Notes: generated by a model from the sequence alone, not told the origin. DNA of 54,929 bases from an uncultured Thermotogae bacterium (GCA_964649445.1 CAZYPS010000005.1:1-54929); one strand, 5' to 3'. Numbered from the stretch's first letter, positions 2,552 to 54,929 are shown. Translations and numbers: made by a program.

Positions 2552-2700
2552 ATTCTCACCCCAAAAATGTAGTGTGGACTGAAAATTAAAAGGGATAAGT
2601 TCCCCCACCTGTAAATTTAAATTTGGTCGGACTTTGCGCATGTGGATGAATGTGTAAAGCATGGCTACTCAAGCTTTACCCACGTTCGAATTTCATTTTG

Positions 2701-24554: not shown

Positions 24555-26387
24555 ATGCATTCTAACTTGAGGAGAAATTCGAAATGGCTGGGGTTAACCC
24601 TGGCATTGATTATGGCTCTTACATTTAGTCTGGTTAGCGCCACGGCCCAGGATTGGCCTGATGAACCCAATTACCCGGAAATTACCAAAGAAGAAGCCAT
24701 GGAATGGGCGGAATCACAGTGGGGTCCTCTTTCCGAATACGAAGAAGCCGCGGTGGATTGGGTTTTTAAAGAATTTCAACCTTCCACGCTTACCGTAAAA
24801 GAACAAATCGAAGAGATGGTCTGGTTTGCCCACGCGACTGAGCCCTATCGCGGCATGTCAATCGACTCGGTAGCGGAAACCATTAAAACTCACGTCTGGG
24901 AATCCGAAGTACTGACGGATGCCTTTAAAGATATAACCGGAATCAACGTGACCCATAATATAATTGACGAAGGAGACTTAATAGAAAAACTCCAGACTCA
25001 GCTTGCTACCAGACAGAAGATCTACGACGTTTATGTAAATGACGCGGACTTAATAGGGACGCACGTAAGGCTCCAGGATGCAGTCAACTTGGAGAATTAT
25101 ATGAACGGTGAGGCTGAAGACATCACCAACCCCAACCTCGACCTTGATGACTTCCTAAACCCTGAGTTCGGTCAAAACTACGAAGGGGAACAAATACAGA
25201 TACCTGATCAACAATTCGCGAACCTATATTGGTTCCGCTACGATTGGTTTAACGACCCGGAACTGAAGGAGAAGTTCAAAGATCGATACGGATACGAGCT
25301 TGCCGTGCCCCAGAACTGGGCGGCTTACGAGGATATTGCCGAGTTCTTCACCGAGCACGTCGATAGAGAAGACGTTCCCAATCCTCCAGAGAAGGACGCG
25401 ATCTTCGGTCACATGGACTACGGCAAGAAAGGACCGTCTCTCGGCTGGAGGTTTACCGACGCCTGGCTCTCAATTGCGGGAGTAGGCTCCAAAGGTCTCC
25501 CGAACGGTCTCCCGGTTGACGAGTGGGGAATCAGAGTAAGGGATAGAAAGCCGGTAGGTTCCGTTGTAGCCCGGGGAGGTGCTTTGAATAGTCCGGCAGC
25601 TTACTACGCCACCGAGAAGTACGTAGAGTGGCTCGACGAGTACGCTCCTCCCTATGCGTCTTCGATGAGGTGGTCCGAGGCAGGTCCGGTTCCCTCTCGA
25701 GGTACGATCGCCCAGAGGCCGTTCCAGTACATCACGTTCCTTTCGGCTGATCCGTTTACTGCGCCTGATTCTTCGGTAACCGACGAAGAAGGTAACCCAT
25801 TGTGGCGAGTCGCACCAACTCCGCACGGCAGGTACTGGGAAGAAGGAATGAAGGTAGGTTACCAGGATGCCGGAAGCTGGACCATTTTGAGGATGACAAA
25901 GGGTAAGAAACGTGAAGTTTCCTGGCTCTGGGCCCAGTTTGCCGTATCGAAGAGCATTACTATGAGGAAGTTTGAAGTAGGTAGAACCCCGATTCGGGAA
26001 TCGACCGTAAATTCGGACTACTGGGAAAAGCACGAAGGTGAACTGGGTGGTTTGATCACTTTCTATCAGTCACCCGTGGAGCACATGTGGACGGACACGG
26101 GCATGAACGTGCCCCATTATCCGCTACTGGCGGAACAATGGTGGAAAGAAATTGGCCTGGCGGTTACCGGCGAAAAATCGCCAAAACAGGCGATGGATGA
26201 CCTGGCGGAGACACAGGACGAGCTAATGGCAGAACTGCGTCTGCCAAAGTATTCTCCCGACCTCAACGAAAAGAGGTCCAGAGAATACTGGCTTGAGCAG
26301 GAGGGTTCTCCGAAAGCGGAAAGACCGCCAGAAGATCCGGAGACAGTTCCTTATGACGACCTTTTGGAACAGTGGGAAGAAGAATAA
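24555..26387 (+). CDS. glpV: Glycerol ABC transporter substrate-binding protein (GlpV-like)
   Basis: Signal peptide; EFQPSTL, PDQQFANLYWFRYDWF, GHMDYGKK..SLGWRFTDAWLS, PNGLPVDEWGIR, GYQD.GSWT. Confidence 0.9.
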   Translation: MHSNLRRNSKWLGLTLALIMALTFSLVSATAQDWPDEPNYPEITKEEAMEWAESQWGPLSEYEEAAVDWVFKEFQPSTLTVKEQIEEMVWFAHATEPYRGMSIDSVAETIKTHVWESEVLTDAFKDITGINVTHNIIDEGDLIEKLQTQLATRQKIYDVYVNDADLIGTHVRLQDAVNLENYMNGEAEDITNPNLDLDDFLNPEFGQNYEGEQIQIPDQQFANLYWFRYDWFNDPELKEKFKDRYGYELAVPQNWAAYEDIAEFFTEHVDREDVPNPPEKDAIFGHMDYGKKGPSLGWRFTDAWLSIAGVGSKGLPNGLPVDEWGIRVRDRKPVGSVVARGGALNSPAAYYATEKYVEWLDEYAPPYASSMRWSEAGPVPSRGTIAQRPFQYITFLSADPFTAPDSSVTDEEGNPLWRVAPTPHGRYWEEGMKVGYQDAGSWTILRMTKGKKREVSWLWAQFAVSKSITMRKFEVGRTPIRESTVNSDYWEKHEGELGGLITFYQSPVEHMWTDTGMNVPHYPLLAEQWWKEIGLAVTGEKSPKQAMDDLAETQDELMAELRLPKYSPDLNEKRSREYWLEQEGSPKAERPPEDPETVPYDDLLEQWEEE

Positions 26388-38327: not shown

Positions 38328-39413
38328 ATGCAAATTAACTCAAAAACAGTAGGATACTTCGTTCAAAATAGGAAAAGATGGGATGATGCGTATTTTGGTA
38401 GAGGTAATGTAGAAGGAACGCCGGCGTACGCTCAGCTCCACGAATACGCGATGGTCCAATCGCCACTGAGCGGTGAGGAGTTTTACACGGACGGGGAGGA
38501 ACTGGTTAATTGGGAAGCCAGAACTGCTCACGAACTTCGCCTCGATATACCCGATATTACGTTCGATTGCTATAATATCGAAGTCGAAGCCCTGGGGGGT
38601 GAGGTTAGATATTTTGACGATAAAGCCCCAGGGTTGATAGACCCTCCAGTGGAAAATAAGAGTGAATTACTCCGCCTTGATCCTCCCGACCCATACAGGG
38701 ATGGAAGGATGCCTTTTGTCTTTGAAATAGTTGAGGAGTACGAGAATTTGTTCGGCTGTTTCCCGAGATTAAACGTTACTGCCCCGTTTACCCTGGCGGC
38801 GAAACTGCGAGGGGTCCAGAACTTTTTGATGGACATAGTGCGGGATAGTAGTTTCGTTAAAGACTTATTGAGCTTTGTAACCGAGGAAGTGCTTGAGCCG
38901 TATATTAATGCCATTAAAGCGGTCAGAAGCTACGAAGGAGAAGTAATTGCCGCTGATGCCATCGCTTCCCCACCGAACCTGGACCTGGATTTATTGGAAG
39001 AGCTGGCCCTACAACCTCTTTTACAACTAAAGAAGTCCTGCGGGGAAGACGTAGTTATCCTGAACTGGTGGGGGGAAAGCCATGTCAAAGATCCCAATAG
39101 GTTGATGGAATTAAAAACCCGTGCCAGTTCCGGAAAGGTGTTAGAGGGCCAGGACCCCGATGTTAACGAACTCGGTCCTGAAAGATACCGGGATTTCGCC
39201 TTATCACGTGATACGTCCCTTATACTGGGAGTTGGGACGGATATGATGATGATGGGAGATCCGACTTCAGTAAAAGAAAGAGTGAAAAGATATTTAAAGG
39301 TCGGAGAAGATATGAAAGGTAGGTTCTTGCTTTATTTTACGAACCTCGTCGGAGATACGCCCCTGGAAAATATTCAAGCTGCCATGGGAGTTTTGAAGGA
39401 ATCTGGCAATTGA
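38328..39413 (+). CDS. Uroporphyrinogen decarboxylase/MtaA-CmuA fold protein of unknown function
   Basis: D.YNIE.EALG, DP..DGRMP, APFTLA..LRG...FLMD, D..ASP, TPLENI.A. It lacks the UroD MRQAGR motif and the MtaA Zn ligands (HxC...C). Confidence 0.8.
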   Translation: MQINSKTVGYFVQNRKRWDDAYFGRGNVEGTPAYAQLHEYAMVQSPLSGEEFYTDGEELVNWEARTAHELRLDIPDITFDCYNIEVEALGGEVRYFDDKAPGLIDPPVENKSELLRLDPPDPYRDGRMPFVFEIVEEYENLFGCFPRLNVTAPFTLAAKLRGVQNFLMDIVRDSSFVKDLLSFVTEEVLEPYINAIKAVRSYEGEVIAADAIASPPNLDLDLLEELALQPLLQLKKSCGEDVVILNWWGESHVKDPNRLMELKTRASSGKVLEGQDPDVNELGPERYRDFALSRDTSLILGVGTDMMMMGDPTSVKERVKRYLKVGEDMKGRFLLYFTNLVGDTPLENIQAAMGVLKESGN

Positions 39414-42694: not shown

Positions 42695-43567
42695 ATGAAT
42701 GAGAGCAAAAATAGAAATTTGTTAAATATTGCCCACAGAGGCGCCCGGAGTATAGCACCGGAGAATACACTGGTAGCTGGTAGAAAGGCTTACAGGGAAG
42801 GAGCGGATTTTTGGGAGTTTGACGTTCGACTTACCGGAGATGGAGAACTGATAGTTTTCCACGACGAAACTCTAACACGAACTACTGATGTTTGTGAAGT
42901 CTTTCCTGATAGAGATTATTACAGGGTAAGTAATTTCGATTTTTCCGAAATAAGACGGCTTGATGCGGGCAGCTGGTTTGGGGAATCGGATCCGTTTGGA
43001 GAAGTAAGCCGTGGTGCCATTTCTGGATCCGATTTGAAGTTGTATTCGGGTGTAGAAGTACCTTCGCTTCGGGAGGCTCTGGAGCTAACGAAGTACCTTG
43101 ATTGGAGGGCAAATATTGAACTTAAGTTTTCTAACGGGCGGGAGGCAAAAGTATTGGAAGAGCGAACCACCAGCGTTTTGCGGCAACTCGTTGATTTGGC
43201 TGAGGAATTGGGGGTGCTGAACAGGGTCGTAGTATCATCTTTCAGCCATGGAGCTATCGGGAAGCTAAAAAACTTTCACTCTGCAATAAAAGGTGCTTTG
43301 CTGGTTAAAGAGCCTTTGGCCAGACCTATAGAGTACCTGGAAGAATATAACGCCAAGATCCTTAATTTGAAGGAATCCGCGGTTCAGACGGAGGCGGGGC
43401 TCAGCAATATTAAGGAAATAGGTGGCGCTAGTCCCAAATACGCGGTAAATTTGTGGACCGTCAACAAAAAAGAAAAAATGAAGGAGTACCTCTTGAATCC
43501 GTTTATAGATGGGTTAGTTACTGATTATCCCGGTAGACTGTCGGAGGTTATTTCAGGGTCAGCTTAG
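42695..43567 (+). CDS. ugpQ: Cytoplasmic glycerophosphodiester phosphodiesterase
   Basis: IAHRGA...APENT, EFDV.LT.DG.L..FHD..L.RTT, NIELK, SSF, WTVN, G.VTDYP; no signal peptide. Confidence 0.92.
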   Translation: MNESKNRNLLNIAHRGARSIAPENTLVAGRKAYREGADFWEFDVRLTGDGELIVFHDETLTRTTDVCEVFPDRDYYRVSNFDFSEIRRLDAGSWFGESDPFGEVSRGAISGSDLKLYSGVEVPSLREALELTKYLDWRANIELKFSNGREAKVLEERTTSVLRQLVDLAEELGVLNRVVVSSFSHGAIGKLKNFHSAIKGALLVKEPLARPIEYLEEYNAKILNLKESAVQTEAGLSNIKEIGGASPKYAVNLWTVNKKEKMKEYLLNPFIDGLVTDYPGRLSEVISGSA

Positions 43568-43661: not shown

Positions 43662-43667
43662 TTGATT

Positions 43668-44468
43668 ATGTCTGACATTCTTGCAGAAGAAAGAAGAAGA
43701 AAAATCTTAGAGGAGTTAGAGGCTGAAGGAACTGTTAAGACCGCCCAGCTGGCAAAACTATTTTCCGTTTCGGAAGTGACAATCCGCCGAGACCTCGAGG
43801 TTCTGAAGGAAGAAGGGAAATTGAAGAAGGTCCACGGTGGGGCAGTAGCGAACGAAAAGAACTTTCAGTCTTCCTATCACGGCGATACAATCACATTTGA
43901 GCCATCTTTTCAGGAAAAAGCTGAAGTAAATAAACAGGAAAAGGAAAAGATAGGAGAAAAAGCCGTTTCATTGATTAAAGACGGGAGTTCTGTCTTCATT
44001 GGTACGGGCACTACTACGATGCAGATCGTAAAAAATATTGGAGATAGGGCTGCCCTAACTGTGGTAACGAATTCTCTGAATCACGGGCTGGAGCTGGCGA
44101 GAACTCCCGAGGTAGAGGTATTAATAACCGGCGGGCAATTGCGAAAGAATACTTCCGCTTTAGTCGGCCCAATTGCAAAACGATCATTCGAGGAAATATA
44201 TGTCGATACATTATTCCTCGGGGTAAACGGAATCTCCATTGATCATGGTTATACGGTACCGTCGCTGAGAGAGGCGGACATGGCACGAAGTATTATGGGT
44301 ATGGCCGATGAAGTAATTATAGTGGCTGATTTTTCAAAGTTCGGTAAAGTAAGCCATGCAAAGGTGGCGGAAATTGACGGGGCGCATAGGATCATAACTG
44401 ACGATCAGGTCGACGATTCTTACAGGGAGGCACTTTCCGATATTGGGGTAGATCTGCTGGTGGCTTAA
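43668..44468 (+). CDS. DeoR/GlpR family transcriptional regulator
   Basis: ERR..IL, LA..FSVSEVTIRRDL..L, VHGGA, GTGTTT, VVTNS, ADFSKFG. Confidence 0.93.
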   Translation: MSDILAEERRRKILEELEAEGTVKTAQLAKLFSVSEVTIRRDLEVLKEEGKLKKVHGGAVANEKNFQSSYHGDTITFEPSFQEKAEVNKQEKEKIGEKAVSLIKDGSSVFIGTGTTTMQIVKNIGDRAALTVVTNSLNHGLELARTPEVEVLITGGQLRKNTSALVGPIAKRSFEEIYVDTLFLGVNGISIDHGYTVPSLREADMARSIMGMADEVIIVADFSKFGKVSHAKVAEIDGAHRIITDDQVDDSYREALSDIGVDLLVA

Positions 44469-44563: not shown

Positions 44564-45286
44564 ATGACTGATTATTTGGAGAGTATAAAAGTAGAGCGAG
44601 AATCAATCAGCAGGAAAATAATAAGGCGAATATTAAAACACATTAAAAAAGTCGGCCTGAAGCCGGGGGACAAGCTTCCCTCCGAAAAGGAGCTTATGGA
44701 GAAAATGGAGGTAGGACGGTCCTCTATTAGGGAGGCTCTGCATGCACTTGTTACGGTGGATATTCTGGAGACGAAACCGGGAAAGGGATACTACGTAAAA
44801 AGGAAGTCGAATATATTTTGCCTGCCCGGTGGAAGCGAACTCGCGGAAGTATTGATCGAAGAGCAGGACTTCATGGCGTTGATCGAAGTAAGAAAGTTTC
44901 TGGAGAAGAAAACCGCCGTTCTTGCCTGTCGGAGGGCAACCGAAGATGATGTCGATAAGGTAAAAAGGGTTATGGATGAGATAAAAAATGCCGCCGATAA
45001 GGAGGAGAATATATCGGACGTTACGGTTAATTTACACCTGGCTCTGGCGGAAGCGACCAAAAATCCGATCATGGTCCAGCTTCTTGATCAAATAGTTCCA
45101 CTCATCGTGACCAAGGCCAGACTAATGGAATTACCACCCGAGAAAGATATGGAGATACACGATGGAGTGGCTAAAGCGCTTGAAAACAGAAACGAGGAAG
45201 AGCTCAAAGATTGGGTGGATGAACATCTGGATTATTTAAAGGAAAGATTTATCAGCACCTTAGAAAAACAGGAAACTAAAAATTAG
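44564..45286 (+). CDS. GntR family (FadR subfamily) transcriptional regulator
   Basis: LKPGDKLPSEKEL...VGRSSIREAL..L, G.GYYV; FCD domain with H..LA.AT.N. Confidence 0.92.
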   Translation: MTDYLESIKVERESISRKIIRRILKHIKKVGLKPGDKLPSEKELMEKMEVGRSSIREALHALVTVDILETKPGKGYYVKRKSNIFCLPGGSELAEVLIEEQDFMALIEVRKFLEKKTAVLACRRATEDDVDKVKRVMDEIKNAADKEENISDVTVNLHLALAEATKNPIMVQLLDQIVPLIVTKARLMELPPEKDMEIHDGVAKALENRNEEELKDWVDEHLDYLKERFISTLEKQETKN

Positions 45287-45312
45287 CCCAATTAGACTGG
45301 GTTAACCTTGTT

Positions 45313-45321
45313 GGAGGTGAT
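45313..45321 (+). promoter_or_regulatory. Extra upstream SD-like element (STAB-SD-like) of SBP gene
   Basis: GGAGGTGAT about 106 nt before the SBP ATG, which has its own GAGGTG SD. Confidence 0.5.
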
Positions 45322-45427
45322 TGCGGAGGAGTTCGAGGTAAGGCTTTCTTACATATTAGTAAGAGGCTAGTGGTCTTAATTCGAAGTTAGGGTAATTAAA
45401 CTTACCAAATCTTTACGAGGTGAGAAA

Positions 45428-46945
45428 ATGCATAAGAAGTTTGGACTTACGTTGGTATTTACTTTGCTGTTCACGGGTTTACTGGTATCGGGATTTACCG
45501 CCAGGACGCAGGCTCAGGAACCAGTTAAAGCAGTTATGATCCCTGCTGGTAGCTTAACACCGGGTTTCTTGAATTCCAATGCAGGTGGAAATATAGCGAG
45601 TGCCGTTTATGACTATCTATTCAGAGTGGGGGAAGATAAAGAGACCGTACCTTCGCTCGTAAAATCGTACGAATTGAACGAGGATTCTACCGTATGGACT
45701 ATGGAACTTCATGAGGGTGTAACCTTTCACGATGGCTCCAAATTGACTGCGGAAGACGTCGTATATACCTTCGAACGACTTATAGATGAAGATGTGGGAA
45801 GTGCTTTACTCGGGACTCTTGGCCCTATCATCGAAAGTGTAGAGGCGCTGGACGACCATACTGTCAGGTTCAACCTGAGTAGGCCCGACGCAGGGTTTCA
45901 CAAGAAGTTAACTGATTATAACGCCGCGGTTATTTCCGCCGATTACAACTATTCGGAGCGCGGAGACACGGAACCGATGGGTAGTGGTGCATTTAAGGTG
46001 GATAACGTTACCCCGCGTGAACGAGTTGAGGCTTCGGCCTTTGAGGATTACTGGGTTGAAGGCGCTCCCAAAATAGACGAACTTACTTTTCTCATGGTGC
46101 CTGAAAAAGAGACTGGTGTCAGGATGGTTTCTTCCGGTCAAGCAGATATCATCACCGATTTAAGCCCGGACCAGTATCTTCGTCTCCAGAGGAAGGATAA
46201 CGTCAATACTCTCAACGAGCAGTACGCAGCGCCGATCATGATTGACTTAAATACGGAGGAAGAGCCTTTTGAGGATCCCAAGGTTAGAAGAGCGCTGGCA
46301 CTGACGGTAGATAGAGAAGTATTGCTTGAATCCGCCGGCTACGGGTTAGGTACGATAGGTAACGATACCCCGATACCAGCCTGGCACGAGTTCCATGATG
46401 ATCTTGGCGGAGTAAGAGAGAGGGACATTGAAAAGGCGAAAGAACTACTGGAAGAAGCTGGTTATTCTGACGGTGTCGAGGTAACGCTCTATTGTGGATC
46501 GAATATCCCTCCAGTGCTCGACGTTGCTTTGACTCTCCAGGAGATGGCCAGACCGGCGGGTTTCTCGATTGAACTCAACACTCTGCCCAGGGATCAGTAC
46601 TATGCCAAGTACTGGCTCCAGGTTCCAATGTCAGCGACACTTTGGGGTCACAGAGAGGATATTACGCAGATGTTAGGAACAGCCTTAACCTGTGATGCTT
46701 CGTGGAATGCAAGCCACTATTGCAATGAGGAACTGGACAAATACGTTGAGCTGGCAAGCGGGACATCCGACCCGGAGGAAAAGCAAGAATACTTTACTAA
46801 AATCCAGGAAATTCTTCACGAGGACGTGCCTGCCCTGGTACCCATGTTCAAAGATTACCTGGGAGCCACCTCGGAGAGAATTGAAGGGTTCTATTTGACC
46901 CAGAACTGGATTAACGACTACAGGTTTATCGAGTTGATGAATTAA
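45428..46945 (+). CDS. ABC substrate-binding protein, family 5 (DppA-like)
   Basis: Signal peptide; GVTFHDGS.LTAEDVVYT, PMGSGAF, PF.DPKVRRAL.L.VDR, WNASHY.N. Confidence 0.92.
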   Translation: MHKKFGLTLVFTLLFTGLLVSGFTARTQAQEPVKAVMIPAGSLTPGFLNSNAGGNIASAVYDYLFRVGEDKETVPSLVKSYELNEDSTVWTMELHEGVTFHDGSKLTAEDVVYTFERLIDEDVGSALLGTLGPIIESVEALDDHTVRFNLSRPDAGFHKKLTDYNAAVISADYNYSERGDTEPMGSGAFKVDNVTPRERVEASAFEDYWVEGAPKIDELTFLMVPEKETGVRMVSSGQADIITDLSPDQYLRLQRKDNVNTLNEQYAAPIMIDLNTEEEPFEDPKVRRALALTVDREVLLESAGYGLGTIGNDTPIPAWHEFHDDLGGVRERDIEKAKELLEEAGYSDGVEVTLYCGSNIPPVLDVALTLQEMARPAGFSIELNTLPRDQYYAKYWLQVPMSATLWGHREDITQMLGTALTCDASWNASHYCNEELDKYVELASGTSDPEEKQEYFTKIQEILHEDVPALVPMFKDYLGATSERIEGFYLTQNWINDYRFIELMN

Positions 46946-46969
46946 CCGAAATCCGTGGAGTATCGAGTT

Positions 46970-47005
46970 GGGTGCCCTTACAAAAAAGGGCACCCTCTTT
47001 CTTTT
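46970..47005 (+). terminator. Intercistronic hairpin/terminator after SBP
   Basis: GGGTGCCCTT / AAGGGCACCC stem followed by TCTTTCTTTT. Confidence 0.75.
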
Positions 47006-47034
47006 AAATTAGCGCTAGTAGTAGGGGGATGGAA

Positions 47035-47976
47035 ATGACAAAGTTCATTGGAAAGCGCCTGGTAAATATGGTTATAACGCTGTTTATAGCTTCGATCATA
47101 ATCTTTGCCCTTACTGAATTGATTCCGGGGGACGTCGCACAGATGATACTGGGGCAGAACGCCACGCAGGAGGCGCTGGAGGGACTCCGGGCCCGGCTAG
47201 GCTTAAACCAGCCGCCATTGGTCCGGTACGGGAACTGGGTATGGGGGGTTCTGCACGGTGACATGGGAACTTCCCTGAGCATGCAAGGAGTGTCCGTGTC
47301 TTCCATTTTGCTGCGCCGTGGTCTCAATTCCCTCTTCCTTGCGGTCTGTGCAACGATGTTCCTGGTTCCTCTGTCTCTTTTTCTGGGAGTGGTTGCAGGG
47401 TTAAAAGAAGGAAGCTGGCTGGATCACTTTATTTCGACCTCTTCCCTCGTCGCCTTGTCGATGCCGTCCTTCATATCGGGTACGTTTCTGGTGTTGATAT
47501 TTTCCATCTGGCTAGGTCTGTTACCAGCCACGAGTTCAATTCAGCCGGATGCCAACCTGTTTGAAGTTTTCCCGAGGCTGATATTACCCATAATAACGGT
47601 ATCCCTGGTATTACTGGGTTACGTAGCCCGCATGGTTAGAGCAAGCGTTATTGATGCCTCCCATGCCGATTACGCCCGGACAGCTGTTTTAAAAGGACTA
47701 CCTCAGCACAAGGTTATCTGGCACATCCTCAGAAACGCTTTGATGCCTACAGTAACAGTGATAGCGATGAATCTCGGCTGGCTGATTGGCGGTCTTGTAG
47801 TAGTTGAAACTTTGTTTGCCTTTCCCGGTCTCGGCCGGCTCGTGTATATTTCGATTCAAAGACAGGATATACCGCTTATCCAGGCCAGCGTGTTACTGAC
47901 CAGCGCGGTCTACCTGATTTTGAATCTGTCCTCGGACGTGATATACACGTTCCTCGACCCCAGAATTCGCTATTAG
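47035..47976 (+). CDS. dppB: ABC permease DppB family
   Basis: PGDVA..ILG, LGLNQP...RY, DYARTA.LKGL, LRNAL.P, VVVETLF.FPGLG, DPRIRY. Confidence 0.9.
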   Translation: MTKFIGKRLVNMVITLFIASIIIFALTELIPGDVAQMILGQNATQEALEGLRARLGLNQPPLVRYGNWVWGVLHGDMGTSLSMQGVSVSSILLRRGLNSLFLAVCATMFLVPLSLFLGVVAGLKEGSWLDHFISTSSLVALSMPSFISGTFLVLIFSIWLGLLPATSSIQPDANLFEVFPRLILPIITVSLVLLGYVARMVRASVIDASHADYARTAVLKGLPQHKVIWHILRNALMPTVTVIAMNLGWLIGGLVVVETLFAFPGLGRLVYISIQRQDIPLIQASVLLTSAVYLILNLSSDVIYTFLDPRIRY

Positions 47977-48032
47977 ATGGGTGATAGTGTGATATCTATA
48001 AAGGACATTGAAATGACTGGAGGTAGCGAAAA

Positions 48033-48887
48033 ATGGAACTCCTAACGAGAAAAGTCGATAACGCTTTTCAGGTAGTCAGGAGGCTTGCCGACTCTCGTCT
48101 GGGACTCATAGGTATGTCGATAATACTTCTCTGGGTTATTATAGCTCTTCTTGGACCGATTATTGCTCCTTATTCCCCAACCGGATATCACATTCAGGAC
48201 AGGTTCGAAGGTCCAAGTTTAAAATATCCTTTTGGCACGGACAGGTTCGGGCGAGACGTATTTAGTCGTGTGTTAATCGGCAGCAGGTCTATAATGATCC
48301 TGGCGAGTACTGCCACCGCAATTAGCCTACTACTTGGAAGTTCCATTGGACTGATCACCGGTTACCTCGGTGGATTAGTGGACGAGATAGTAATGCGGTT
48401 CATGGATATATTGATGTCGTTTCCCGCACTTCTTTTTGCCATGCTCATTCTAGGTATTTTTGGACCCAGTACGTTTGGAGTCATAGTGGTTATTGGCCTG
48501 GTATATGCCCCGCGGATAGCCCGGGTCGCGCGGAGCGCGGTACTGGAAGTCAAAGAAAAGGAGTTTATCGAGGCGGCGAAAGTTCGGGGGGAATCGAATC
48601 TTTATATCATGTTTGCCGAGCTGCTTCCCAATATCTGGGGACCCCTGGGTGTGGAAGCGTCGGTAAGGTTCGGCTACGCGATCTTTTTGAGTGCTTCCCT
48701 GGGTTTTCTCGGTCTGGGAGTCCAGCCACCGACACCGGATTGGGGTCTTTTGATGAAAAACGCTCAGCCTCACATAACTAACGCGCCCTGGATGGCGATA
48801 TTCCCGGCTCTGGCAATCGCATCTCTGGTCGTAGCCGTCAATTTCCTTGCCGACGCTATCCGGAAGTACGAAGCGGGAGAAATTTAA
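48033..48887 (+). CDS. dppC: ABC permease DppC family
   Basis: PFGTDRFGRDVFSR, FIEAAKVRGE, LGFLGLGVQPPTPDWG. Confidence 0.9.
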   Translation: MELLTRKVDNAFQVVRRLADSRLGLIGMSIILLWVIIALLGPIIAPYSPTGYHIQDRFEGPSLKYPFGTDRFGRDVFSRVLIGSRSIMILASTATAISLLLGSSIGLITGYLGGLVDEIVMRFMDILMSFPALLFAMLILGIFGPSTFGVIVVIGLVYAPRIARVARSAVLEVKEKEFIEAAKVRGESNLYIMFAELLPNIWGPLGVEASVRFGYAIFLSASLGFLGLGVQPPTPDWGLLMKNAQPHITNAPWMAIFPALAIASLVVAVNFLADAIRKYEAGEI

Positions 48888-48900
48888 TGGAGGGACCGAG

Positions 48901-50976
48901 ATGAGTGATCTGAAGAACGGATCTAATCCGATACTTGATATAAGAGATCTGGTAGTAAGCTACGAAACCAGATCCGGTAATCTAACTGCCGTTCGAGGTG
49001 TCAACCTCTCAGTGGAAAAGGGCAAAACTCAGGGAATAGTTGGCGAGTCAGGGTGCGGGAAGAGCACTCTGGCCTTCGCGATAATGGGCTACCTCGATCG
49101 CAATGGTCGGATAGATAGTGGCCAGATTTTTCTGGATGGCGAAGATATATCGGATAAACCGGAGAGCTGGATGAGGAAAATATGGGGCAGGGAGTTAAAT
49201 ATTGTTTACCAGGATCCTTCGGCTGCGCTGAACCCTTCAATCAAAGTCGGCAAGCAGATCGGGGAAGTACTGGAAACTCATGAAGGTATGACTGAGGATG
49301 AAGCCAGGAGTCAATCGATCGATACTCTGGAGGAACTGCAGATATCGGATCCGGGCATCGTAGTGGATAGTTTCCCCCACCAATTGAGCGGGGGAATGCG
49401 TCAGCGTGTCTGCCTGGCGATGGCTCTGGTTTCCCAGCCAAAGTTACTGGTCATGGACGAACCGACTACTAACCTTGACGTTACAGTTGAAGCAAAGATT
49501 CTTGATATCATCAAGGACCTAAAGAAAGAATTCGAGACGACCATCCTCTATATTACTCACGATCTCGGGGTCGTCTACGAGGTTAGCGACCGCTCGGGTG
49601 TAATGTACGCGGGACAATTCGTGGAAGAGGGACCTACGGATGAGCTTATAGGAAATCCGATTCATCCCTATACCCGTGGTTTGCTGCGATCAGTGCCAGA
49701 GGTATCCGCGGAAACCGTGAAAGGAAAGCTGAGGCCGATAAAAGGTTCCGTGGTGGAACTGGATGACCTGCCTTCCGGCTGTAAGTTTAACCCTCGCTGT
49801 CCCTACATGCAGGAAAATTGTACCGGGACCGAGCCCGAGGTTCGGGCTTTTGGAGAGGATCGATACGTTCGTTGCTACGAGGCGAAGGTAGTCGCCGAAG
49901 ATAATTACGAAAAAAGAGTCGAGTCGTCCGAGGAGAGCTACGAAACTTCCGAAAGTGGGGAAGGAGAGAAGATACTGGAAGCGGAAAGAGTAAAGAAGTA
50001 CTTTGGCGAGGCTAGTTCCGGTCTCTTTAGTTTCGGGGAAGCTGATGAGAGGGTAAAAGCTGTAGACGACGTGAGTTTTGGATTGGACGAGGGAGATACT
50101 CTTGGTGTCGTAGGGGAATCCGGTTGTGGTAAGAGCACTCTCGCTCGAACGATAATTGGGCTGGAAGATATAACTGAAGGACAGATAACCCTGGAGGACA
50201 GGGATATATCCGTCCCAATCGAAGGGCGTGAGCCTGAGGTCCTCAAGCAGATTAGAATAGTATTCCAGGATCCTCGTGCTACCCTGAACCCCAAACGAAC
50301 CATCAGGCAAACTATGATGCGGCCGATTCAGCTGGCAGGAGCTAATCGTGAGGAAGCACTTGATAAAACTCGGGAACTACTCGAGGCAGTAGATCTCGGA
50401 CCAAGCTATATGGATCGCCACCCGGACCAGTTAAGCGGAGGGCAGAAACAGCGTGTTGCGATAGCACGGGCTTTTGCCAGCACGCCGGAGCTTATCCTGT
50501 GTGACGAACCGACCTCCAGCCTGGACGTTTCGATCCAATCCTCGATTATAAATCTTTTGCTCGATCTTCAGGGCGAGCTGGATACCTCCTTCATGTATAT
50601 CTCTCACAACCTTGCCGTGGTTAGCTATATCAGCGATTACATGGCGGTGATGTATCTTGGGAGGATAGTCGAGGTTGGACCGACAACTAATATCCTAAAC
50701 CCACCTTATCATCCGTATACAGAGGCTTTACTTTCATCGGTTTCTATGCCGAACCCCGACGTGGAACAGAAAAGGATTCGGTTGTCGGGAGCAGTGCCTA
50801 GTGCCAGGGATGTTCCTTCGGGTTGCAGGTTTCATACTAGATGTCCCCGAAAAATAGGGGAGATATGTGAAGCGGAAGAACCACCCACCCGTGAGATTGG
50901 AGACAAGGGACATGCCATTACCTGTCACATACCGATAGAGGAACTTAAAGAAGTTGAACCCGTCTTGCAGCAATAA
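48901..50976 (+). CDS. Fused DppD/DppF ABC ATP-binding protein
   Basis: ATG 48901 after GGAGGG; two GESGCGKS Walker A motifs, two LSGG signatures, two HPYT plus C-x-F-x-x-RCP oligo_HPY tails. Confidence 0.92.
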
Positions 50977-51067
50977 GAAGGAGATGGTTTGAAGGAGTCC
51001 GTTGCAATCCGATGGAAATGGACAAATCGATCTATCAAGCAATTAACCGAGGAGGTTAGTATATTAG

Positions 51068-52285
51068 ATGGACGAGAAAAATCTGGAACAGGCTACTTTG
51101 CAGGTTATGGGTGGATACGGGTTAGAGAAAAGCGTTAAAAAGGAATCGCTGGCTCCACCACTTGCTCAGACCGTAGCTCATCCGTTTGAAAGTGCAGAAA
51201 AAGCCGAATGGGTGTTCGACACTGAAGCCAACTACGAAGAATACGGGGGATTACAGGGTTACATTTATACCCGGGAGAATAACCCGACACTAGATATTTT
51301 TGAAGATCGTGTTGCCTTACTGGAAGGAGGCGGGGGTGCTCTTGCTACCAGCTCGGGAATGGCCGCAATTTCCCTGGCGGCCCTGTTCGAGCTTGAAGCC
51401 GGAGATGAAATAGTCGTCTCCAATCATACTTATACCTGTTCGTTTGAACTTTTTTCCCGAACACTGCCCCGGTTTGGTGTTGAAACCAGAGTAGTAAATA
51501 AACCGCACGATCTCTCCCGGTGGAGCGATGCAGTTACGGAAGATACGAAGTTCATGTTCGTGGAGACTCCAAGTAATCCGGTATTGTACGTCGGAGATCT
51601 GGAAAAGCTTGCCGAAATTGCCGACTCTTACGGAACCAAACTGATGGTCGACAATACAATCGCAACGCCGGTACTCCAGAAACCTCTTGAGATGGGAGCA
51701 GACATCGTAATAGAGTCCGTCTCTAAGTACATGAGTGGCAACGGTACGATCCTTGGAGGAGTTGTCGTAGGCGACGATCCTTACATTCAGGACCTGAGGC
51801 GACAGGAATACATCCAGTACGGAAACGCCATGGCTCCGTTTAACGCCTGGCTATCCCTGCTGGGGCTGGAGAGTCTGGATATGCGGATGGAGAAGCATTC
51901 CAGTAATGCCCTGAAGGTTGCCGAATTTCTCGAAGACCACGAAAAAGTCAATCGAGTAAATTATCCGGGGCTGGAAAGCCATCCTCATCACGAACTGGCC
52001 AATTGCCAGATGAAGGACTTCAGTTCGTTGCTCTCATTCGAGATTGACGGAGATAAGGAAGATGCGTTCGATCTGCTGAATTCTTTAAAACTGATTCCCA
52101 CGGCAACTCACGAAGGAAGTTCCCGGTCCGTCGTATGTCATCCCGCTTCGACGATATTTCATCGGTTGACCGACGAAGAGCTGGCGGACGCCGGTATTTC
52201 TAAGAGTCTGATCAGACTTTCCGTGGGAATAGAAGCACCGGGAGATATAGTTGATGACCTGGATCGGGCGTTATCCCGAATCTAA
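51068..52285 (+). CDS. PLP-dependent trans-sulfuration family enzyme, methionine gamma-lyase-like
   Basis: YTR.NNPT, SSGMAAI, Y-x-C (YTC), ETPSNP, DNT, SKY (PLP lysine), YPGL.SHP, IRLSVGIE. Confidence 0.85.
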   Translation: MDEKNLEQATLQVMGGYGLEKSVKKESLAPPLAQTVAHPFESAEKAEWVFDTEANYEEYGGLQGYIYTRENNPTLDIFEDRVALLEGGGGALATSSGMAAISLAALFELEAGDEIVVSNHTYTCSFELFSRTLPRFGVETRVVNKPHDLSRWSDAVTEDTKFMFVETPSNPVLYVGDLEKLAEIADSYGTKLMVDNTIATPVLQKPLEMGADIVIESVSKYMSGNGTILGGVVVGDDPYIQDLRRQEYIQYGNAMAPFNAWLSLLGLESLDMRMEKHSSNALKVAEFLEDHEKVNRVNYPGLESHPHHELANCQMKDFSSLLSFEIDGDKEDAFDLLNSLKLIPTATHEGSSRSVVCHPASTIFHRLTDEELADAGISKSLIRLSVGIEAPGDIVDDLDRALSRI

Positions 52286-52320
52286 TAAGCCGAAACTAGC
52301 CCATAATCCATTTAGGAGTG

Positions 52321-53784
52321 ATGAAATTGGGTATCAACGATCATTTTAATTACTGGAATAGACCTAAATTAAAAGTTTTTTCCGAAGACCAGCACGAGAA
52401 GATATACCAATCCGCGCTTGAAATACTCGAAAGAACCGGCACGGAATTCCATTCCGAGGAAGCGGTCACGATTCTCGACGATGCTGGGGCGACTGTAGTA
52501 GACGGAAACACAGTTAAAATGCCATCGAGTATGGTGGAAAAAGCACTGAGAACCTGTGGTAAGCGTGTGGTTCTGAGTGACCGTAATCTCAATTCGACGA
52601 TGTTTCTGGAAGGGGATAATACTTATTTTGGACCTGGTTCCGAGACCCCCAATACGATAGATCCCTACACGGGCGAGCGACGGAAGTGCGAGAAAAACGA
52701 CGTAGTACGGGCAGCCACGGTCGTCGATAAACTGGAAAACATCGACTTTGCGATGTCTTTCGCTCTGGCAAACGACGTACCCAAGCACAACTCCGATCTA
52801 CACCACTTCGAAGCGATGGTCAAGAATACTACAAAACCGATTCTCTTTACTGCATGGGATCTTGAAGGGTTAAAAGCTATATACGAGATGAGCGTAGCGG
52901 TTGCCGGAGGGGAAGAGAAATTCAGGATGAATCCGTTTATCCTGCTCTACGACGAGCCCAGTTCGCCGCTGAAGCACTCGAAAGAAGCCGTGGAAAAGCT
53001 CATGTTCTCCAGTAAAAAAGGCATCCCGATTCAGTACGTACCCACTCCCTCTCTCGGTGCAGCCGGGCCGATCTCACTTGCCGGTGCCTACGCATTGACG
53101 GAAGCTGAATACCTGAGCGGGCTCGTTCTATCGCAGGAAGTAAAGGGAGGCTCTTCATTGATCTTCGGTGGTGGTCCGACGACCATGGATATGAAGACGA
53201 CGGTCTTTTCCTACAGCGCCCCCGAGACCATGTTGAGTCTGGTCCTGAGAAAGGAGGTCGGGTCCTACCTGGGCGTACCTGCCTTCAACGCCGGAGGGTT
53301 CACGGACTCAAAGGATATAGATCAGCAGGCGACTCTGGAGGTTGCCAACTCGTTGAACTACGCCGCTCTGGCGGGTGGAAACCTCGTTCACGATGTCGGT
53401 TATCTCGAATCCGGTATGACTTCCTCGCTTGAGTTGCTGACGATAGCGGACGAAGAGATTTCGATGATAAATCGGTTTATTAAGAGCACCGAGGTTAACA
53501 GGGATACGCTCGGTGTGGACGAAATCGACGAGGTAGGAATCGGTGGCAATTATCTGACGTCATCTCAGACGGTAGAGAAATTCAAGGAAGACATATGGTC
53601 GCCCGACCTGATCGACCGTCAGGTCCACGAGAGCTGGGAAGAGGACGGGAGTTCCACCCTGCGGGAACGGGCACGGGAAAAGGTCCATGACATACTGGAA
53701 AGCCACGAACCGGAAGAGCTTTCCGAAGACGTGTCGGACGAGGTCACGAAAATAGTCGAAGAATACGAGGAAAAACGGTCTTAG
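52321..53784 (+). CDS. Trimethylamine methyltransferase (MttB/MtgB) superfamily, non-pyrrolysine
   Basis: S.EILERTG, NTTKP, SPL, P.SLAG, DMKT, G.TDSK..D.QA, G.NLVHDVGYLESG, G.GGNYL. Uninterrupted ORF; exact start uncertain. Confidence 0.92.
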   Translation: MKLGINDHFNYWNRPKLKVFSEDQHEKIYQSALEILERTGTEFHSEEAVTILDDAGATVVDGNTVKMPSSMVEKALRTCGKRVVLSDRNLNSTMFLEGDNTYFGPGSETPNTIDPYTGERRKCEKNDVVRAATVVDKLENIDFAMSFALANDVPKHNSDLHHFEAMVKNTTKPILFTAWDLEGLKAIYEMSVAVAGGEEKFRMNPFILLYDEPSSPLKHSKEAVEKLMFSSKKGIPIQYVPTPSLGAAGPISLAGAYALTEAEYLSGLVLSQEVKGGSSLIFGGGPTTMDMKTTVFSYSAPETMLSLVLRKEVGSYLGVPAFNAGGFTDSKDIDQQATLEVANSLNYAALAGGNLVHDVGYLESGMTSSLELLTIADEEISMINRFIKSTEVNRDTLGVDEIDEVGIGGNYLTSSQTVEKFKEDIWSPDLIDRQVHESWEEDGSSTLRERAREKVHDILESHEPEELSEDVSDEVTKIVEEYEEKRS

Positions 53785-53875
53785 AGCAATTCAGACCGCT
53801 CTAGAGGTTACTTTTCCTATATCTATAGATAATTAGACCATAAAAACCAGACCAACAAACTGGAGGTTCCAAGTT

Positions 53876-54715
53876 ATGACTGAGGAGAGAGAAGAGGTAA
53901 ATATAAACTACCTCTATCAGAAGAAAGAAGAAGGCGAGAAGATCTCCTGGCTTACCGCCTACGATTACCCCACTGCCGGGTACGAAGAGAAGGCGGGCAT
54001 TGAGATGATCCTGGTCGGAGATTCGGGTGGCATGACCCTTCTGGGTTACGATTCCACCCTACCTGTAACCATGGACGAGATGGCCGTTATGACCAAGGCA
54101 GTAACCAGGGCAACCGACAAGACCTTCGTAGTGGGGGACATGCCCTATATGAGCTATCAACCCTCCAAAGAAAAGGCAATAGAGAGTGCCGGCAGGCTAA
54201 TGGGTGAGTGTGGTGCCGATTGCGTCAAGCTCGAAGGTGGCAAGCGGATGGCACCTACCGTTGAGGCAATGGTCGATGCAGGAATACCCGTTGTGGGCCA
54301 TATCGGTATGACTCCCCAGTCGGCAGCCCAGCTTGGTGGTTACAAGAGTCAGGGCCGAGACGCCGAGACGGCGAAGGAACTGATAGAGGACGCCAGGGCT
54401 CTGGAGGATGCCGGTGCTTTTGCCATACTTCTGGAAGCAGTCCCGACCAGAGTAACCGAACTGATCTACGCGGAGTCAGAAGTACCGATTTACGGGATAG
54501 GCGCCGGACCGAAAAACGACGGAGAACTGCTTATCGTTCAGGATATACTGGGCCTGTTTGAACTGTTCAAACCCCGATTCGTCAAGAGATACGCAAACCT
54601 TGGTGAAGAAATGGTAGATGCCTTCCAGCGCTATAAAAGTGAGGTAAAGGAAGGTGTCTTCCCCGCCGAAGAACACTCCTACAACATACCGGACGAGGAA
54701 TACGATAAAATTTAA
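53876..54715 (+). CDS. panB: 3-methyl-2-oxobutanoate hydroxymethyltransferase (PanB) or paralog
   Basis: LTAYD, LVGDS, VVGDMP, VKLEGG, GHIG.TPQ, LLEAVP, GIGAG, FVKRYA. Confidence 0.9.
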   Translation: MTEEREEVNINYLYQKKEEGEKISWLTAYDYPTAGYEEKAGIEMILVGDSGGMTLLGYDSTLPVTMDEMAVMTKAVTRATDKTFVVGDMPYMSYQPSKEKAIESAGRLMGECGADCVKLEGGKRMAPTVEAMVDAGIPVVGHIGMTPQSAAQLGGYKSQGRDAETAKELIEDARALEDAGAFAILLEAVPTRVTELIYAESEVPIYGIGAGPKNDGELLIVQDILGLFELFKPRFVKRYANLGEEMVDAFQRYKSEVKEGVFPAEEHSYNIPDEEYDKI

Positions 54716-54747
54716 CGGAGAACGGCCTTCGATTTTGTTGGATAGAT

Positions 54748-54775
54748 ACCGCCCCGGACTTTTCGGGGCGGTTTT
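54748..54775 (+). terminator. Rho-independent terminator
   Basis: ACCGCCCCG / CGGGGCGGT stem followed by TTT. Confidence 0.75.
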
Positions 54776-54929
54776 AATATCCGTTTTGGCCTGGCTAATT
54801 GAGGTAGTTTAATTTAACTCTCGAGGGATAGTGTAGCATTTTATGTGTAAAAATCGCTTTGGAAACCGTTCGACAAAACCAGGGATCAATTTCCCCAGCG
54901 GGGAAATTGCCCTTTCCGATCTCGGCTCG

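Follow-up and report, generated by a model that had tools for sequence, protein, structure and literature searches.

The question raised by positions 44564-54715 of contig C5 from a halophilic Candidatus Bipolaricaulota (Acetothermia/KB1-like) bacterium is what a panB gene does at the end of a gene cluster that otherwise predicts the import and demethylation of a methylated compound. The cluster consists of eight co-directional genes on the + strand, recognised from open reading frame (ORF) calls and profile matches, that predict a GntR/FCD regulator, a binding protein, two permeases and a fused ATPase of an ATP-binding cassette (ABC) importer, a pyridoxal phosphate (PLP) enzyme, an MttB-superfamily methyltransferase and PanB. 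The entire contig, 54,929 nucleotides (nt), was analysed and is referred to as the window; sequence 3′ of its end is not on the contig. The answer that we prefer, with a probability of about 0.5, is that the locus is an accessory, GntR-controlled module for importing and demethylating an onium compound that feeds the folate pool, in which PanB links methylene-tetrahydrofolate (methylene-THF) to a 2-oxo acid and is not a pantothenate enzyme. Taken by itself, a functional coupling of PanB to the folate one-carbon (C1) pool fed by MttB systems is somewhat probable.

The genome, G000, is a 2.26-Mb metagenome-assembled genome (MAG) in 218 contigs that is 89.6% complete. It was compared with genomes of the Bipolaricaulota class, 184 of which were searched for MttB and for a class-I aminotransferase; families of the class are labelled f1 to f8 and G000 belongs to f1. 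Public runs containing small parts of the window carry the label hypersaline lake metagenome, and isolate or contig names of several relatives resemble salt-lake samples.

PanB and the pantothenate pathway

The predicted PanB exceeds the curated cut-offs of PF02548 (359 bits against 28.7), NF001452 (355 against 272) and TIGR00222 (307 against 207.55). In an alignment with E. coli PanB (1m3u), D45, S46, D84, K112, E114, H136 and E181, which we take to be the metal-binding and catalytic residues, are all identical. By every sequence test the protein would be named PanB, yet the pathway of that name is not in sight. The original prediction had panB cut off from panC, panD and panE, and the separation extends to the whole assembly, as PanC (PF02569), PanD (PF02261) and PanE/ApbA_C (PF08546) gave no matches in G000 (IlvC and PoK were not searched). 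PanC was found in none of the 19 f1 genomes (G000 included), none of six f6 genomes, two of which are closed single-contig genomes, and none of five further f4 genomes; it is present in 10 genomes of other families in the 41-genome sample used for this survey. The archaeal phosphopantothenate synthetase PPS (PF02006) was likewise found in none of the 19 f1 genomes. A type III pantothenate kinase is present in G000 and fits salvage. Judged from the related genomes, this distribution suggests that PanB serves C1 metabolism and not the synthesis of vitamin B5.

Several families have two PanB types. One, clade A, is 58-63% identical to the window PanB and is encoded beside unrelated genes. The other is 46-54% identical to it and is found next to PanE (G022, G031, G034), in G034 together with CoaX, or next to PanC (G036, G033, G027). 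In a tree of 32 PanB rows, from which the copies next to PanC (G036, G033, G027) and many further class members were left out, the PanE-linked copies form a clade of their own (100/100). The remaining rows cluster by taxonomic family, except for a lone f8 row that stands apart and one f7 row that groups with f5. The window PanB falls inside a 12-row f1 clade (100/100), apart from the PanE-linked clade.

Conservation of the module and recurrence of PanB beside MttB

Orthologs of the window MttB (66-93% identity) were detected in 10 other genomes of the class, and any MttB match at E≤1e-80 in 23 of 184. Ten ortholog loci were examined (G000, G012, G009, G011, G001, G014, G004, G018, G015 and G160, with G006 left out). 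The PLP enzyme is encoded directly 5′ of MttB in all ten, and the same ABC genes and GntR precede this pair wherever the contig extends far enough. GntR orthologs that head the module are 78-79% identical in G009, G014 and G004, and 47% identical in G160.

Configurations 3′ of MttB vary. PanB follows directly in G000, after 91 nt, behind a PrpD-like gene in G012, and behind a class-I aminotransferase gene in G011 and G014. In G009, MttB is followed by an unnamed TIM barrel, the large and small AcnX subunits and the contig end, in G018 by AcnX and the contig end, and in G001 and G004 the contig ends within 0.8 kb. G015 has AcnX, the small AcnX subunit, a PrpD-like gene and unrelated genes, with PanB about 21 kb away. 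Hence, among the five loci in which PanB does not follow, four stop at a contig end and one has PanB at that distance. The f4 genome G160 carries the complete series, namely GntR, ABC genes, PLP enzyme, MttB, TIM barrel, AcnX large and small subunits, PrpD-like protein, aminotransferase and PanB, pieces of which are found in the other species. The arrangement in G000 is thus an abridged version of this larger cluster.

The most regular neighbour of PanB is the class-I aminotransferase, which is absent from the window. Orthologs of the latter (E≤1e-90) are confined to f1, f4 and f2, where they occur in 21 of the 184 genomes, and PanB lies in the 1.5-kb flank of 8 of 23 aminotransferase loci, with a corrinoid-protein gene between the two in two of them. 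MttB is found directly 5′ in 7 of the 23, mostly as paralogs 38-42% identical to the window MttB. The aminotransferase itself matches broad-specificity AspAT/aromatic aminotransferases, which gave no clue to its specificity. The gene order on contig C2 of G133 is PrpD-like, Fe-ADH, MttB, GntR, proline-racemase-like, MttB, MttB, aminotransferase, corrinoid protein, PanB, ADH fragment and MttB. Other clusters of MttB paralogs with aminotransferase and PanB are located on G160:C86, on the metagenome contigs L179-L181 and, in the order aminotransferase, corrinoid protein, PanB, in G181. A segment of G012 (C73:35753-38526) includes an MttB gene (38% identity to the window MttB), the aminotransferase gene and, of panB, only the final 24-25 codons (72-75% identity); this 24-residue remnant counts among the eight PanBs in aminotransferase flanks. 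It appears to be what is left of a second MttB-aminotransferase-PanB unit that has decayed, which suggests that PanB travels with the unit.

Four f4 genomes (G160, G157, G039 and G133) hold PanB in a kept setting (unknown, Maf, PanB, unknown), and G133 and G160 carry cluster-embedded copies besides the Maf-linked one. The f4 copies together make up a single clade (100/100) in which the MttB-linked ones branch off first, indicating that they were duplicated and retained inside MttB clusters and did not come from f1. Of 80 metagenome loci the best 30 were examined, and six of these encode an f1-like PanB (at least 77% identity). In five of the six (L178-L182) the gene is preceded by MttB-aminotransferase, by MttB-MttB-TIM barrel, by a PrpD-like gene, or by the whole module plus the aminotransferase; PanB is 3′ of the module in L182, and in L183, which matches G017, it comes after a phosphoenolpyruvate (PEP) carboxykinase (PEPCK) operon. 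In f5 and f7, clade-A PanB is encoded 3′ of a TIM-barrel gene (directly in 2 of 4 loci), and a gene for FTHFS, FolD or a MetV-like protein stands beside the pair in G031 and G028. Linkage of PanB to MttB clusters, as in the window, is thus found again in two of the class's families and on metagenome contigs.

The TIM-barrel proteins are a family of about 300 aa encoded outside the window (L089:9960-10886 in G160, L082:12403-13293 in G009 and L035:8844-9794 in G031). Members are 46-70% identical across phyla, with Spirochaetia, Eisenbacteria, Thermoplasmatota, Bathyarchaeia and Armatimonadetes among the source names. They occur in 43 of 50 f6 and 16 of 18 f5 genomes, and precede clade-A PanB in f5 and f7, where the gene adjoins FTHFS in 2 of 4 loci, one of them with a MetV-like DUF5981 gene nearby. 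No Pfam match was obtained even at E≤1, and no NCBIfam match. An AlphaFold model (predicted local distance difference test, pLDDT, 92) is a plain TIM barrel from which no function could be read: the best Foldseek hits are class II aldolases at template modelling (TM) scores of about 0.45-0.5, and VIA-align gives Z values of 12-15 to many unrelated barrels, including CutC, aldolases, MTHFR (12.7) and PrpB (12.5). Canonical MTHFR (PF02219) was not found in the two closed f6 genomes, which suggests that the TIM-barrel protein may be an unrecognised folate enzyme.

Two further PanB neighbourhoods were recorded. In G016 (L030:3850-4629) a heliorhodopsin gene (PF18761, 324 bits) lies directly 3′ of aminotransferase-PanB. 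In G017 (L032:10982-17846) PanB closes a six-gene operon that predicts Hom, Asd, an aspartokinase-like AA_kinase, an AspAT-like aminotransferase and PEPCK before it, with gaps of 13-30 nt. The operon is near-identical to L183:1018-7879 and covers the route from PEP to homoserine together with PanB.

Several observations weigh against a specific role of PanB in the module. The trio of lyase, MttB and PanB is on one contig in only 5 of the 10 orthologous loci, with intervening genes in four of these; conservation of the neighbourhood, on which the original prediction hung, thus stands for the PLP-MttB pair and not for a strict trio. Neither AcnX nor the TIM barrel was found in the G000 assembly, its only PrpD is a 41% paralog that adjoins another MttB on C2, with no orthologous PrpD at the locus, and its aminotransferase ortholog is on C49, outside the window. 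PanB is common in relatives that lack the module, being present in most Bipolaricaulia without MttB: no MttB was detected at E≤1e-80 in 50 f6 and 18 f5 genomes, yet PanB is present in 10 of 10 sampled from the two families. In a hand comparison of genomes with both PanB and MttB in which the upstream side is assembled, six show adjacency within 3 kb and six show none, and three end at contig ends. Outside the phylum, neither PanB nor this aminotransferase is near MttB in any of 35 loci of distant MttB homologs with flanks of up to 10 kb. The cases of PanB with MttB are from related organisms and reduce to about three genera in two families, and the genomes are MAGs (70-93% complete) apart from the two closed f6 genomes. 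Within PanB itself, clade A and the PanE-linked type are separated by six fixed differences, none of which is catalytic and most of which also vary among solved canonical PanBs; together with the equivalog scores and the kept catalytic residues, nothing in the sequence of PanB indicates a new substrate. A second, housekeeping panB was looked for and none was found, the window gene with its canonical active site being the only copy in the assembly, and f1 genomes generally having one. A sole copy agrees with the condition under which the original prediction would fall, but PanC, PanD and PanE were not found with it in this incomplete assembly.

PanB may instead be the lineage's housekeeping ketopantoate enzyme, an anchor gene bordering a variable region in which MttB cassettes are gained and lost, with read-through being incidental. 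The aminotransferase would then make 2-oxoisovalerate from imported valine, and an unrecognised enzyme would replace PanC. We regard this as possible, if doubtful. It agrees with the single copy, the scores above equivalog cut-offs, the canonical active site without any class-specific catalytic change, and the presence of PanB in f5 and f6 genomes without MttB. The 3′ neighbours of f1 PanB are also fixed, an AP_endonuc_2/CbiR-like gene and a squalene-hopene cyclase gene following in G012, G009, G017, L182 and L183, whereas the 5′ side varies, with rubrerythrin in G007, GpsA/DeoR/GDPD in G013 and the PEPCK operon in G017 and G015; a fixed 3′ side with a varying 5′ side fits a conserved anchor gene beside a variable region too. 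In G013, where the module is missing at this place, a divergent GpsA gene separates PanB from the nearby GDPD-DeoR pair. However, PanC was not found in the f1, f6 and f4 genomes surveyed, nor PPS in f1, nor PanD or ApbA_C in G000, and where two PanB types coexist the second one is encoded next to PanE, PanC or CoaX. Also against it are the extra f4 copies inside MttB-aminotransferase-corrinoid clusters, additional to the Maf-linked copy, and the decayed PanB after the second MttB-aminotransferase pair of G012:C73. A simpler form, in which the adjacency of PanB is a coincidence of an inserted module, is weakened by G160, the f4 clusters, the aminotransferase loci and the metagenome contigs. A functional link of PanB to MttB-fed C1 metabolism is favoured by the f4 duplicates within clusters, the decayed PanB of G012 and the varied MttB paralogs found 5′ of aminotransferase-PanB, as well as by the corrinoid gene that intervenes where aminotransferase and PanB are neighbours, the occurrence of folate genes next to clade-A PanB elsewhere and the lack of a pantothenate partner.

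Gene products, substrate and one-carbon route

Features of the window are listed in Table 1. Gaps within the run are between -41 and 141 nt; the true start of the fused ATPase gene is uncertain, as the TTG start listed overlaps the permease gene by 41 nt. The prediction of a co-directional run that closes at a terminator was borne out by the ORFs, the families and the final hairpin, which is the sole strong terminator-like hairpin with a T run 3′ of the genes. No terminator-like site was detected in the MttB-PanB spacer, which is weak evidence as promoters and terminators were sought by pattern match and sites were no more frequent than in shuffled sequence. The hairpin behind the binding-protein gene may terminate transcription in part or stabilise the mRNA. 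Three public runs of one study contain contigs that bridge the MttB-PanB joint (53059-54684, 52522-54856 and 52005-54286), and the joint is therefore not an assembly artefact. At the contig end, summed contig depth is 195-1107, compared with about 3-11 in the preceding bins (four runs), and many loose ends fall at 54827-54885. This high-copy sequence is probably a dispersed repeat and the cause of the break in the assembly. Synteny with relatives indicates that C5 probably continues into C132, which carries the convergent AP_endonuc_2/CbiR-like gene and then squalene-hopene cyclase.

Table 1. Features at the 3′ end of the window, with the matches on which each assignment is based.
Feature	Position	Strand	Basis
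GDPD, glycerophosphodiester phosphodiesterase; last gene of the upstream glycerol/glycerophosphodiester island	42695..43567	+	PF03009 120 bits
DeoR/GlpR-type regulator	43662..44468	+	PF00455, PF08220; under every NCBIfam equivalog cut-off
GntR/FCD regulator, first gene of the module	44564..45286	+	PF00392 63 bits, PF07729 70 bits
Family-5 (Dpp/Opp/Nik/Gsi-type) solute-binding protein, SBP_bac_5	45428..46945	+	PF00496 278 bits
Hairpin 3′ of binding-protein gene	46970..46995	+	10-pair stem, 7 G-C, T-rich tail; pattern match only
ABC permease, DppB/NikB-like, BPD_transp_1	47029..47976	+	PF00528, PF19300
ABC permease, DppC/NikC-like, BPD_transp_1	48033..48887	+	PF00528, PF12911
Fused DppD/DppF-type double ATPase	48847..50976	+	two ABC_tran and two oligo_HPY stretches; NF008453 576 bits
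PLP enzyme, Cys/Met gamma family, methionine-gamma-lyase-like	51068..52285	+	PF01053 (Cys_Met_Meta_PP) 384 bits
Non-pyrrolysine MttB-superfamily methyltransferase	52318..53784	+	PF06253 (MTTB) 305 bits, positions 28-493 of 500
PanB (3-methyl-2-oxobutanoate hydroxymethyltransferase family)	53876..54715	+	PF02548 (Pantoate_transf) 359 bits
Intrinsic-terminator-like hairpin ending the run	54748..54772	+	11-pair stem, 8 G-C, TTTTAAT tail
High-copy repeat at contig end	54827..54929		contig depth

The MttB reading frame is uninterrupted (488 codons without a stop), Phe328 aligns with the pyrrolysine (Pyl; X) of the solved trimethylamine methyltransferase 7xcl, and the protein scores 407 bits against the 525 cut-off of TIGR02369 for the Pyl enzyme, in agreement with the predicted non-Pyl type. 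It is equally far from the solved MtgB and the solved MttB (about 194-199 bits), and G000 encodes eight MttB paralogs. Passages of PMC13080624 name Y97, R312, H348 and F356 as the glycine-betaine-binding residues of MtgB. These align with S108, F323, H358 and G366 of the window MttB, a hand count in which the numbering offset of +2 was confirmed at each of the four positions, and the His alone is kept (1 of 4). Because three of the four published residues are replaced, the protein is predicted to be a non-Pyl member with a substrate other than glycine betaine. Substrates of characterised family members given in the same passages are glycine betaine, proline betaine, carnitine, gamma-butyrobetaine and phosphocholine (MthB). 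Together with trimethylamine for the Pyl form, only six substrates are known. The 35 distant loci mentioned above (at most 47% identity; Halanaerobiales, Anaerolineae and Desulfobacterota) were ordinary MttB-corrinoid-MtgA clusters and provided no clue to the substrate; one has a PLP neighbour.

The PLP enzyme scores under every NCBIfam cut-off. Its best match is O-succinylhomoserine sulfhydrylase (NF006003, 389/522), then O-acetylhomoserine/O-acetylserine (OAH/OAS) sulfhydrylase (TIGR01326, 378/495) and methionine gamma-lyase (MGL; TIGR01328, 350/549.7). Its nearest solved structures, which match at about 300 bits along almost the whole protein, are MGLs, and it keeps the residues aligned to Tyr58, Arg60, Tyr113, Cys115 and the PLP lysine of Citrobacter MGL 1y4i. 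The Cys of the Tyr-x-Cys motif presumably marks methionine gamma-lyases, and we assume the roles of the other aligned residues in the same way. The gamma-lyase-type enzyme of the original prediction is consistent with these relatives and residues.

The importer has the complete Dpp/Opp/Nik/Gsi architecture of a family-5 binding protein, two permeases and a DppD/F-type fused ATPase. The binding protein is under the cut-offs of the substrate-specific equivalogs NikA (169/600), GsiB (163/594) and DppA (134/1005), and of OppA too. It is closest to GsiB/YliB-type and uncharacterised family-5 proteins, the best solved relatives being 5u4o (E 8e-46) and GsiB/YliB 1uqw (E 8e-41). A 44% paralog of the module GntR precedes the aminotransferase on C49 of G000.

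The sulfhydrylase-first order of matches, the kept MGL-type residues and a binding protein whose best named relatives (GsiB/YliB, Lmo0135) bind glutathione/cysteine-type ligands are what a methionine-centred module would lead one to expect. The PLP enzyme would make or break homocysteine or methionine, as a sulfhydrylase or a gamma-lyase, with PanB uninvolved, and the methyl-corrinoid would methylate homocysteine or be fed by a sulfonium compound (S-methylmethionine). Corrinoid-dependent betaine demethylation tied to methionine synthesis is described for marine bacteria in passages of PMC12478193, and the window MttB lacks the carboxylate-binding Arg of MtgB. However, the characterised MttB substrates in the passages of PMC13080624 are all quaternary amines and none is a sulfonium, the PLP matches are all below family cut-offs, and a homocysteine-binding methyltransferase domain was not seen at the locus, where no search was aimed at one. 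The recurrent aminotransferase-PanB tail is left unexplained, and we consider this account improbable.

The region 5′ of the module (13739-44468) appears to be an island for the utilisation of glycerol, glycerol-3-phosphate and glycerophosphodiesters, ending in GDPD and the GlpR-like DeoR regulator. It includes GlpA/B/C-like genes (DAO+BFD, Pyr_redox_2, DUF1667), a GlpD-like enzyme, glycerol kinase, two Ugp-like ABC systems with DUF2160, a phosphonate-type binding protein and its ABC system, three HAD phosphatases, PHO4/PhoU_div and a weak URO-D homolog (MtaA-like?) at 38328-39413. Elsewhere in the window, the ORFs 287-2662 (-) and 24555-26387 (+), of 791 and 610 aa, have no Pfam match at E≤1e-10.

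Were the MttB substrate a choline-type head group released by GDPD (choline, phosphocholine, glycerophosphocholine or the head group of a betaine lipid), the proximity of this island, with its Glp dehydrogenases, kinase, Ugp-type importers, phosphatases and URO-D homolog, would be accounted for. GDPD-DeoR is directly 5′ of the module in G009, G014 and G004 as well, the phosphocholine-specific MthB exists according to passages of PMC13080624, and loss of the MtgB Arg fits a substrate without a nearby carboxylate. Against this, a separate GntR gene heads the module of G160, and neither GDPD nor DeoR was matched at that locus, where only 829 nt precede GntR on the contig. GDPD-DeoR occurs 5′ of PanB without the module in G013, and choline compounds would not lead one to expect a family-5 binding protein of the peptide/opine type or a Cys/Met PLP enzyme. 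This origin of the substrate is very improbable.

For the preferred reading, import and demethylation of another onium compound with delivery to folate, the remaining machinery has to be encoded elsewhere. As originally noted, C5 has no corrinoid protein gene, and no gene with a B12-binding domain. G000 has four such genes, on C2, C37, C130 and C28, and candidates for the partners that were to be looked for are encoded there: corrinoid proteins on C2 and C37 and Pterin_bind proteins on C2 and C74, which may serve this MttB or other paralogs. A C1 core on C2 at about 65.4-74.4 kb (L154) predicts a corrinoid protein, GcvP alpha and beta, an MtgA-like pterin-binding enzyme, FTHFS, GTP cyclohydrolase I and FolD, and SHMT and MTHFR (C53, C16) are also encoded. 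A similar second module was seen on C2 at about 21.3-31.5 kb (L153), with genes for GntR, MttB, URO-D (MtaA-like), a PrpD-like protein, a family-5 binding protein, two permeases and a fused ATPase.

In the proposed route, the Dpp/Opp-family ABC system would import a charged methylated (onium) compound other than glycine betaine, and the non-Pyl MttB would transfer one methyl group to the Co(I) form of a corrinoid protein encoded on C2 or C37. The MtgA-like enzyme on C2 would hand the methyl to THF, and MTHFR, which interconverts methyl- and methylene-THF, would allow its oxidation to methylene-THF. The PLP enzyme may act on the amino-acid part, converting a 4-substituted 2-aminobutanoate (methionine, homocysteine or a homoserine derivative) to 2-oxobutanoate. 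PanB would exchange a hydroxymethyl group between methylene-THF and a 2-oxo acid, either pyruvate, giving 4-hydroxy-2-oxobutanoate (HOB), or 2-oxobutanoate or 2-oxoisovalerate, in a direction that may be either forward or reverse. Hydroxymethyl transfer of this kind is the established chemistry of the PanB family. In the sister genomes, the class-I aminotransferase adjoining panB would tie the 2-oxo acid to its amino acid. The PLP enzyme, aminotransferase and PanB converge on 4-substituted 2-amino- or 2-oxobutanoates, which favours a C4 node (methionine/homocysteine, homoserine, HOB and 2-oxobutanoate). Of the original prediction as a whole, the gene families, the non-Pyl MttB and the linkage of PanB with MttB have held, while the trio is not strict and panB has no second copy.

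A bolder version, by analogy with engineered pathways, is that clade-A PanB is a natural pyruvate/HOB:THF hydroxymethyltransferase of a homoserine-node C1 shunt, with the aminotransferase and the gamma-lyase-type enzyme; we consider it rather improbable. Pyruvate and methylene-THF would be interconverted with HOB, and HOB with homoserine, which would go on to 2-oxobutanoate, and C4 skeletons would take up, or give off, the methyl groups that MttB enzymes remove from osmolytes. The original HOB work reportedly used E. coli PanB as the HOB:THF enzyme. In the G000 assembly, genes for Asd, aspartokinase (AK), AspAT and PEPCK are on C3 without PanB, and since the PEPCK-PanB operon of G017 is not reproduced there it is only a weak hint for the homoserine idea. 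Passages of PMC8719824 describe a synthetic pathway from homoserine via HOB to pyruvate and C1-THF that works in E. coli, and according to passages of 10.1101/2025.02.17.638773 a Pseudomonas PanB, tried in P. putida as the pyruvate plus C1 enzyme, gave partial growth.

Relation to known systems

Among the methyltransferases of anoxic and saline habitats that lack an assignment, the non-pyrrolysine MttB enzymes are some of the commonest. The locus marks out a new and clearly bounded subgroup of MttB, which is always accompanied by a PLP enzyme of the gamma-lyase type and an importer of the peptide/opine type, and the constancy of these two partners narrows the search for a new osmolyte-like substrate. 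It also shows a textbook enzyme of a vitamin pathway occurring across a whole bacterial class with its usual pathway partners missing, and repeatedly tied to gene clusters for methyltransferases, aminotransferases and folate enzymes. If PanB is a high-flux link between C1 units and 2-oxo acids, methylotrophic anaerobes would have a new way for C1 units to leave or enter the folate pool, and designs for synthetic C1 assimilation would have a precedent in nature. If the homoserine-node shunt exists, the engineered HOB pathway and homoserine cycle would have an equivalent in nature, in bacteria that no longer synthesise pantothenate. The enzymes involved are small soluble proteins, making the question directly testable.

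MttB homologs in KB1/Bipolaricaulota genomes are noted in general terms in passages of PMC4993014 and PMC12343361. Literature linking MttB with PanB, a Cys/Met PLP enzyme or this aminotransferase was not found, although supplementary tables of genome surveys could list such genes.

Overall, the methyltransferase system is of a known type, with a conserved set of partners that is unusual and with an orphan PanB. It shares the non-Pyl MttB TIM barrel, and a regulator and transporter alongside, with MtgB/MtgC/MtgA (glycine betaine), MtpB, MtcB, MtyB and MthB. The small corrinoid proteins, MtgA-like enzyme and folate C1 enzymes are likewise present in G000, but the corrinoid protein and MtgA are not at the locus. 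The transporter is of the Dpp/Opp type and not of the OpuA/BCCT type, and the window type has the Cys/Met PLP enzyme 5′ (10 of 10 loci) and PanB 3′, often with the aminotransferase. The PLP enzyme shares the Tyr/Arg pair, Tyr-x-Cys and the PLP lysine with methionine gamma-lyases (Citrobacter freundii 1y4i, Pseudomonas putida 1gc0) but scores slightly higher against sulfhydrylase models. Compared with canonical PanB (231 bits to M. tuberculosis 1oy0 and 207 bits to E. coli 1m3u), the catalytic residues are the same, whereas the neighbours of clade-A PanB are MttB, aminotransferase, corrinoid protein, FTHFS or the unnamed TIM barrel. HOB is called absent from canonical metabolism in passages of PMC8719824. 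With the synthetic HOB pathway and homoserine cycle (E. coli, P. putida), the clusters share kinds of steps, namely an aminotransferase, PanB-type C1 transfer and homoserine-type C4 enzymes, an analogy drawn from genes alone, and the Hom-Asd-AK-AspAT-PEPCK-PanB operon of G017 would cover the homoserine-regeneration half of that cycle.

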